From Chloroflexota bacterium (GTDB lineage Bacteria > Chloroflexota > Anaerolineae > Anaerolineales > UBA11579): 24,574 nt of DNA. A program made the position numbers and the translations under genes. The notes beneath the pieces were generated by a model. That model did no database searches, had not been told where the DNA came from, and saw only the letters and a list, made by a program, of their open reading frames with translations. Shown one piece after another: positions 1,087 to 1,430 of the stretch. Within the stretch, counting starts at the first letter, position 1, and every line of letters begins with the position of its first letter. The DNA lies in contig JAUWSD010000001.1 in NCBI GenBank assembly GCA_030610225.1, positions 1 to 24,574 on the forward strand, given 5' to 3'.

Positions 1087-1114
1087 TTGCATATCCTGAA
1101 TTCAGGTATAATAT
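1087..1114 (+). promoter_or_regulatory. Putative sigma70-type promoter in the recA-recX gap, with a perfect 12-bp palindrome in the spacer
   Basis: TTGCAT (1087-1092)-N16-TAATAT (1109-1114), overlapping a perfect TATAAT (1107-1112). CCTGAATTCAGG lies at 1095-1106. The region is very AT-rich, so chance matches are possible. Confidence 0.4.
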
Positions 1115-1430
1115 ATTAATGTTTCACCGGAATATTAATAACTGATCATTAAAGTTTCAATGATCTCTAATAGTAATATTTGCGGCTACGGATTACTAAT
1201 AAAATTTAGAAGATAAAAGTATTGACAAGACTTATATCAATACATAAAGACAAATTAAATAAAATAGTTTAAAACATGACCTGATAATTTTAGCGAATTT
1301 GTCTTAAAAGCAAATAAATATTTAACTTACTTGAACATTCTTGTTCAAAATAACTATCTATTTACTCAGGTAAATAGTCATATTGCTAAATCTCTAAATC
1401 CAACCGTAGCTGAAAACCGCTGCGGTTTTT
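1114..1430 (+). ncRNA. Candidate structured RNA (5' leader of recX-rny or an independent ncRNA); no family recognised
   Basis: Nested complementary segments: 1183-1191/1404-1412, 1204-1210/1393-1399, 1219-1225/1237-1243, 1247-1256/1296-1305, 1331-1337/1342-1348 and 1358-1365/1370-1377. Upstream hairpins: 1114-1140, 1144-1165 and 1171-1198. G-U pairs fall on the + strand. Confidence 0.35.
1413..1430 (+). terminator. Perfect palindrome AAAACCGC-T-GCGGTTTT just before recX: weak intrinsic terminator/attenuator or protein operator
   Basis: An 8-1-8 inverted repeat followed by TGTGTT. As RNA it has only three G-C pairs around a 3-nt loop, so termination would be weak. Confidence 0.35.

Follow-up and report, generated by a model that had tools for sequence, protein, structure and literature searches.

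What does the long, AT-rich gap between recA and recX in a Chloroflexota genome contain, and could it act on the genes that follow it? We addressed this question in a stretch of 24,574 nucleotides (nt) from a Chloroflexota bacterium (contig JAUWSD010000001.1, assembly GCA_030610225.1), hereafter called the window, in which recA is followed by recX and by rny, the gene of RNase Y. An earlier reading of the letters, here called the original prediction, had noted a gap of ~430 bp with ~25% GC and proposed that it encodes an unrecognised cis-regulatory leader RNA for recX-rny. The gap (1008-1439) is indeed 432 nt long with 25% GC, compared with ~41% GC for the locus, and the proposal gained support from the conserved position and architecture of the element in relatives, from compensatory changes in its helices and from the lack of a match in Rfam. 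Comparative sequence analysis indicated that in Anaerolineae the recX-rny unit has a real and conserved cis-regulatory RNA that is not yet catalogued. This leader is reasonably likely to act as a transcription attenuator whose two folds exclude each other.

In many bacteria the decay of mRNA is initiated mainly by RNase Y, and RecA is held in check by RecX. To our knowledge, next to nothing has been established about the control of RNase Y or RecX beyond Bacillus. A leader that is conserved throughout the class and carries a conditional terminator would be a concrete control point for recX and rny in Anaerolineae, and we regard the leader as a candidate new RNA family for Rfam.

Two competing folds in front of recX

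The predicted structure held against dinucleotide shuffles: positions 1114-1430 gave a minimum free energy (MFE) of -70.7 kcal/mol, compared with -42.5 ± 4.8 kcal/mol for the shuffled sequences (z = -5.8; 0 of 100 shuffles folded as well). The minus strand of the same interval gave z = -4.0; the plus strand is favoured because of its G-U pairs and the downstream U-tract. The inner helix, the four arms and the three additional hairpins of the original prediction were all recovered in ViennaRNA folds. Its outer helix (1183-1191/1404-1412) was recovered as a pairing but not in the role of a static closing helix, since it is an alternative to a terminator that had been overlooked. The outer helix is the MFE solution only if the sequence ends after 1411. 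When the next 20 nt were added, a terminator hairpin (1402-1410/1419-1427) competed for the same 3' strand.

We named the 5' strand of the outer helix A (1183-1191), its 3' strand B (1404-1412) and the second partner of B, in the terminator, A' (1419-1427). The long-range helix formed by A and B is called P1 (duplex energy -16.5 kcal/mol) and the inner helix P2. Strands B and A' form a hairpin that resembles an intrinsic terminator (1402-1427; 9 bp, 8-nt loop, -13.8 kcal/mol) and is followed by a U-tract; this putative terminator lies 8 nt before the recX ATG. P1 and the terminator are mutually exclusive because both need strand B, and in a 266-nt element the fold with P1 enforced and the fold with the terminator enforced had the same energy (-57.1 kcal/mol each). 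P1 extends P2 across a small internal loop; in the window P2 closes a four-arm junction, and several relatives are rod-like. The weak hairpin 1171-1198 forms in the terminator conformation. With P1 formed, the freed A' region of the window (1413-1429) can fold as AAAACCG-CUG-CGGUUUU, which would consume most of the U-tract. This small hairpin, which seems specific to the genome of the window, may further disable termination in the read-through state.

These folds suggest a switch. In the read-through fold, A would pair with B across ~210 nt and extend P2; with B occupied, no terminator would form and RNA polymerase would enter recX and rny. In the termination fold, A would be held in or near the weak 5' hairpin (1171-1198) and B would pair with A', so that the hairpin and the U-tract would stop transcription 8 nt short of recX. 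Since A and B are made before A', the default state is probably read-through, and a factor keeping A from B would switch the leader off. Both a hairpin that truly terminates and a regulated choice between the folds are what we infer from these models.

Conserved architecture and covariation in relatives

A blastn search of the gap against 40 relatives returned chance-level short matches only. The conservation came to light only when the recA-recX gaps of relatives were extracted by synteny and compared. The order recA-recX-rny was conserved in the relatives, and the gap was always long (235-531 nt). In Anaerolineales the elements followed a common order: 5' hairpin, strand A, linker, P2 5' strand, variable middle, P2 3' strand, strand B, loop, strand A', U-tract and recX ATG. 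The 5' hairpin of the relatives is GCCGC...GCGGC and overlaps strand A by at least 3 nt; the weak hairpin 1171-1198 is its positional counterpart in the window. The consensus sequences are GGCCACGGCU for strand A, AGCCGUGGCC for strand B and CCACGGCUG for strand A', and the P2 5' strand (CUCAG, CUUAG, UUGGA or CUGG) pairs with CUGAG, CUAAG, UCCAA or CCAG, respectively. The middle holds one to four hairpins, whose number, length and sequence vary between genera. The U-rich tract, often UUUAA, lies directly before the recX start. The original prediction had cautioned that inverted repeats arise easily by chance in AT-rich DNA; the comparison with relatives points to structure beyond chance.

The alternative folds were also found in the relatives. 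When the sequences of 26 relatives from the family or order were truncated after B, nearly all of them folded into the long-range A:B helix plus P2. In the full-length folds of the same 26 relatives, the B:A' terminator mostly replaced A:B while P2 was kept. The energy difference between the two states was 0-13 kcal/mol, with a median of ~2-3 kcal/mol.

Two local features were observed in subsets of these loci. The terminator loops of L054, L061, L069, L079, L106 and L098 have CAGGCAGG / ACAGGCGG in common, and this lengthens the stem (GGCC..GGCC); it is unusual for a terminator loop to be conserved in sequence. A hairpin AUCC-(GCAA/UUAG/UUCG/GCGA)-GGAU occurs upstream of a CCGCCG hairpin in locus L101 (2198-2212) and also in L086, L088, L105, L109, L116 and L118. 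In this one subgroup it follows immediately on the TATAAT hexamer, where the 5' end of the leader is predicted, and may be a 5'-terminal protective stem-loop.

For the covariation analysis, 106 upstream regions were aligned with profile hidden Markov models (HMMs) of the 5' block and of the 3' block, which carry no pairing information. The two block HMMs were used separately because alignments must not be fitted to the structure, and they were preferred to a full-length alignment because MAFFT misaligned the length-variable middle. The P1 set consisted of 47 distinct sequences (46 aligned by HMM plus the window, added by hand) and 10 core pairs. Canonical pairs filled 93% of its cells, and 17 double-compensatory cells were found at 6 of the 10 positions. 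The double changes include CACGG/CCGUG vs. UACGG/CCGUA (the latter in the window, C-G to U-A), CUCGG/CCGAG, A-U to U-A, and G-C to A-U at two positions. When strand B was permuted among the sequences, 0 of 2000 permutations reached the observed P1 pairing.

Strand A resembles A', and complementarity to B could follow from that resemblance. Of 45 sequences, 53% had complementary flanks outside the terminator overlap (P1b/P2) at p ≤ 0.05 and 29% had them at p ≤ 0.01, which argues that the long-range helix is not a mere by-product of A resembling A'. For the terminator, RNAalifold on 32 copies gave 9 pairs, 5 of which carry compensatory changes. The alignment of relatives that had been suggested for the original prediction thus yielded conserved gaps with compensatory changes in P1, P2 and the terminator.

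Distribution and gene context

When species-representative genomes were scanned with an alignment of RecX, 80 named loci were obtained, all with Anaerolineae or Chloroflexota-type titles, among them Anaerolinea, Bellilinea, Levilinea, Longilinea, Brevefilum, Ca. Desulfolinea and Ca. Villigracilis. The adjacency and order of recX and rny were kept in all of the 80 + 30 loci examined. The upstream gene was less constant: recA lies directly upstream in only 43 of 99 distinct loci (the 80-locus set plus the first syntenic set) and is not the neighbour in the other 56. In these 56 loci the neighbour is unrelated or divergent, the gap is mostly 400-1250 nt long, and the 5' and 3' blocks are still present. 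Among the copies with both blocks aligned, a perfect TATAAT was found 38-68 nt before strand A in 24 of 25 copies not linked to recA vs. 0 of 19 recA-linked copies. Since the element is kept without recA and then has its own TATAAT, it appears to belong to recX-rny rather than to recA. Judging by these contexts, some genomes have the element as a promoter-proximal leader, and in others it would be an attenuator between two genes that receives its transcription from recA.

The window falls between these two arrangements. Most recA-linked relatives have the start of the element 2-28 nt past the recA stop, compared with 160 nt in the window, where recA is upstream and yet these 160 extra nt hold two hairpins and a TATAAT (1107-1112) before the conserved core. 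This hexamer is a possible -10 element of a promoter belonging to the leader itself, and recA is probably the source of read-through transcription into the leader in the window.

At E ≤ 0.01 the 3' block HMM matched 90 of 106 Anaerolineales regions. It matched 5 of the 47 regions that represent the remaining orders of Anaerolineae and none of the 20 that represent other Chloroflexota classes. A more loosely defined hairpin core (GCYRYRG and the complementary arm, with a T-rich tail, at most 170 nt from recX) was present in 29 of the 47 other-order Anaerolineae and in none of the 20 other-class genomes; as a strict regular expression it undercounts the hairpins at the order level (17 of 99), because many copies have G-U pairs or variant arms, and it was used only for this comparison of other orders with other classes. 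Many of the other-order copies have a complementary upstream strand of quite different sequence, e.g., CCACAGCUAU/AUAGCUGUGG, GAUCAUAGCU/AGCUAUGAUC and AGCCGCAGU/ACUGCGGCU. In other Chloroflexota classes (L181, L185-L188, L196 and L198) the recA-recX gap is ~100-150 nt long and usually holds a plain terminator without an upstream complementary strand. The long Anaerolineae leader looks like an elaboration of this simpler short-gap arrangement.

The core palindrome occurs in ~1-2 copies per genome, near the control count, and is therefore not a repeat family. The gap sequence itself is single-copy in its own genome (blastn returned the self match only). A second perfect palindrome that has the core of the family, AGCCGUGAGUUUUCACGGCU, was noticed on another contig of the same genome (G000:C115:685-704).

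The original prediction recognised no known RNA family, and neither did our searches: at gathering scores, Rfam 15 matched neither the window nor any of 40 related loci, 20 of them with recA-recX-rny synteny and 20 without recA upstream. A permissive Rfam scan of the gap region returned JA02 (E = 1.6) and snoR28 (E = 5), which were rejected as chance-level. Transfer RNA (tRNA) and transfer-messenger RNA (tmRNA) were considered as candidates for the gap and were dropped, since the scan of the window for both detected none there. A leader-peptide reading was rejected because no small open reading frame is conserved and the middle is unconserved.

Transcription in a relative

Metatranscriptome contigs from one freshwater study were available for locus L101, from a Brevefilum fermentans metagenome-assembled genome, in which a TATAAT lies at 2185-2190 and the predicted start is near 2197. 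The contigs cover 2211-2499, i.e., from 14 nt past the predicted start, and three of them bridge the terminator into recX (2369-2608, 2416-2709 and 2470-2688). The 170 nt upstream (2041-2210) were covered by no metatranscriptome contig of that study. The contigs support, and are only supportive of, transcription of the L101 leader together with recX, as contigs cannot prove transcript ends and DNA may contaminate RNA libraries.

Alternative explanations

Several observations weigh against an attenuator. The strands of P1 are highly conserved, so that the covariation is modest, and the sequences are related by phylogeny, which inflates permutation tests and makes their figures overstate independence. 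When the energy of duplexes between B and the 330 nt upstream was tested, A:B was significant relative to shuffled upstream sequence in only 22-48% of loci; the power of this test is low, and the enrichment is clear but far from universal. The AT-rich, divergent copy of the window was missed by both block HMMs at E ≤ 0.01, and blastn finds no relatives for it. Strand A of the window aligned to the conserved GCGGCCACGGCU block of the relatives by profile HMM weakly (E ≤ 10, not E ≤ 0.01), and the window is assigned to the family by its position, its architecture and a match of 13 nt around strand A. One GC-rich genus has GUGCGCGUUUAA after the hairpin and no clean U-tract. Termination and read-through, in the organism of the window and in its relatives, are predicted from sequence and folds, and it is the gene context alone that ties the switch to RNase Y.

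The hairpin could simply be the recA terminator, ending most recA transcripts behind a structured recA 3' untranslated region (UTR) whose long-range pairing has no switching role; RecX would then be kept scarce, as in E. coli. Terminators between recA and recX are common, other Chloroflexota classes have short gaps with simple ones, and the recA-linked Anaerolineales copies begin 2-28 nt past the recA stop without a promoter of their own. We nevertheless consider this improbable, because the element, including strand A, is kept with its own TATAAT in the 56 loci (of 99) that have no recA neighbour, because strand A tracks changes in strand B and the helix continues beyond the terminator, and because one does not normally find the sequence of a terminator stem preserved throughout an order. 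The promoter-to-terminator unit evident in the non-recA contexts, together with the stable fold, would also suit a stand-alone, trans-acting small RNA of ~250-300 nt with incidental read-through into recX-rny. Such an RNA is unlikely here: the terminator lies 5-60 nt from the recX ATG, which leaves no room for a separate recX promoter, the RNA contigs of the relative bridge the terminator into recX, and the element always adjoins recX in the same orientation. The central domain, expected to be the trans-acting part, is moreover the least conserved.

The original prediction had also mentioned a riboswitch-like element. A competition between P1 and a terminator is a classic expression platform, and the four-arm junction of the window could be imagined as an aptamer whose metabolite ligand stabilises P1 and causes read-through. 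Since the junction and its arms differ between genera in number, length and sequence, and the conserved nucleotides lie in the A/B/A' and P2 helices rather than in the joining regions, we regard a metabolite-binding riboswitch as very unlikely; no Rfam riboswitch matched, and recX and rny are not metabolic genes. Least probable is a feature acting at the DNA level, either an operator whose palindrome is bound by a dimeric regulator, for instance LexA, or a repeat like the repetitive extragenic palindromic (REP) sequences and miniature inverted-repeat transposable elements (MITEs). The hairpin is an inverted repeat beside SOS genes, and the arm 1331-1348 contains GAAC-N6-GUUC. However, the core palindrome is present only 1-2 times per genome, near the control count, the gap is unique in its own genome, the spacing of the half-sites varies from 3 to 22 nt, and the G-U pairs and the U-tract work on the plus strand only. 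The three-way covariation of A, B and A' is unexplained at the DNA level.

What might set the proposed attenuator? One tentative and rather doubtful idea, drawn by analogy, is that the leader acts as a co-transcriptional sensor of RNase Y, with homeostatic feedback at the level of termination and the length of the spacer as a timer. While the long, variable spacer between A and B is being transcribed, free RNase Y would cleave the AU-rich leader where it is single-stranded, so that A becomes detached; with A gone, B would be left with A' alone and transcription of recX-rny would terminate. We favoured this trigger because the genes controlled are those of RecX and RNase Y and because the B. 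subtilis RNase Y regulates its own mRNA through the leader. A protein binding the 5' hairpin and strand A is an equally open alternative.

Genes and other features of the locus

The coordinates of the genes and of the leader features are collected in Table 1. The rny start lies 20 nt past recX and has its own strong ribosome-binding site, AAGAGGUG. recX lacks a Shine-Dalgarno sequence, and its ATG follows 8 nt after the first U run (1428-1430) of the terminator tail. Because of these two properties, the terminator hairpin or a free A' could also influence the translation of recX. A UUUAA-type sequence was seen before the recX ATG in many relatives.

The original prediction of no open reading frame longer than ~20 amino acids in the gap did not strictly hold: a 38-codon frame with a TTG start (1331-1447, plus strand) and an 82-codon frame (1394-1642, minus strand) exist. 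Both are probably spurious. The former overlaps the terminator and the recX start, and the latter is antisense to the 5' end of recX. The arm 1331-1348 forms the palindrome UUGAAC-AUUCUU-GUUCAA (GAAC-N6-GUUC), which adjoins SOS genes and was not seen conserved in the relatives. It resembles the Gram-positive/Dehalococcoides LexA box, GAAC-N4-GUUC, but has the wrong spacing.

Table 1. Genes and leader features, in window coordinates.
Feature	Position	Strand	Evidence and remarks
recA	3..1007	+	Pfam RecA (8.9e-135) and list of open reading frames; 5'-truncated at the window edge
TATAAT hexamer, perfect	1107..1112	+	Read from the sequence; 71 nt before strand A; candidate -10 of the leader's own promoter
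Two extra AT-rich hairpins (1114-1140, 1144-1165)	1114..1165	+	MFE fold; genome-specific, outside the conserved core
Weak 5' hairpin (1171-1176/1193-1198)	1171..1198	+	-4.2 kcal/mol; strand A in its loop
Strand A, CGGCUACGG	1183..1191	+	5' strand of long-range helix P1 (putative antiterminator)
P2 5' strand (AUUUAGA, then GAU)	1204..1214	+	Inner helix 1204-1210/1393-1399
Variable central domain, four arms (1219-1243, 1247-1305, 1331-1348, 1358-1377)	1219..1377	+	MFE fold
P2 3' strand (AUC, then UCUAAAU)	1390..1399	+	Folds
Strand B, shared strand	1402..1412	+	Pairs with A (1404-1412) or with A' (1402-1410)
Strand A' (1419-1427) and U-rich tract (1428-1435), UUUGUGUU	1419..1435	+	Terminator scan
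recX	1440..2072	+	Pfam RecX_HTH1/2/3; first gene downstream of the leader
rny (RNase Y)	2093..3613	+	Pfam RNase_Y_N, KH, HD; second gene downstream of the leader

Comparison with known systems

The E. coli recA-recX terminator, which Pages et al. are said to have described in DNA Repair in 2003, reportedly allows partial read-through and keeps RecX far below RecA. The window likewise has a terminator between recA and recX. It differs in its 432-nt gap with an alternative long-range pairing, vs. a short gap without one in E. coli, and the Anaerolineales element is kept in the 56 of 99 loci where recA is not upstream.

The E. coli element rne5 (Rfam RF00040) is a long, multi-hairpin autoregulatory leader of RNase E that acts on mRNA stability and has no leader terminator. 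Like rne5, the leader studied here is long, has multiple hairpins and lies upstream of the gene for a main decay-initiating endoribonuclease. Unlike rne5, it has a putative terminator, and it does not match the Rfam model.

The RNase Y of B. subtilis autoregulates via the leader of its own mRNA (Korobeinikova et al. 2023, PMC10303841). This autoregulation is by mRNA decay: cleavages in the 5' UTR and the early reading frame are followed by the action of RNase J1 (PMC10303841). The present leader also lies upstream of the RNase Y gene, where the level of the enzyme could feed back. In contrast to the B. subtilis rny 5' UTR, it has a putative terminator and antiterminator, there is no evident homology, and recX stands between the leader and rny.

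The closest known mechanism, by analogy, is the zipper-type attenuator cATT of the Bacillus subtilis plasmid pLS20 and related conjugative plasmids, which has been demonstrated experimentally (Gonzalez-Alvarez et al., NAR 2026, PMC13401043). cATT consists of a weak upstream stem-loop, a central stem-loop and an intrinsic terminator before the first gene; the 5' arm of the terminator has its complement further upstream, and when the two pair, the central stem is zipped further and termination is blocked (PMC13401043). The two states are nearly equal in energy, the antiterminator forms by default, and its disruption leads to termination in vitro and in vivo (PMC13401043). The upstream hairpin is the most conserved part of cATT, which suggests an unknown binder (PMC13401043).

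Apart from the central stem, the likeness extends to those of these features that are open to computation. The leader has a putative terminator hairpin (1402-1427 plus U-tract) immediately before recX, the first gene of its unit. Its weak upstream hairpin (1171-1198) carries strand A, which can pair with the terminator's 5' arm, and in the window its two conformations are similar in energy (-57.1 vs. -57.1 kcal/mol). As in cATT, conservation is highest in the region of the upstream hairpin. The two systems also differ: the central domain of the window is a four-arm junction closed by P2 instead of one long stem, there is no sequence relationship, and the unit is the chromosomal housekeeping pair recX-rny of Chloroflexota as opposed to the conjugation operons (conAn genes) of Firmicutes plasmids, so that the leader is not located before conAn1. 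The leader is often intercistronic, directly after recA, and its behaviour is predicted from the sequence. With its class assigned from computed folds, the element is best described as a new family of a known kind of attenuator, the zipper type. If this holds, it would be a chromosomal housekeeping example of zipper-type attenuation, a mode described as recently as 2026 and for no other replicons than conjugative plasmids.

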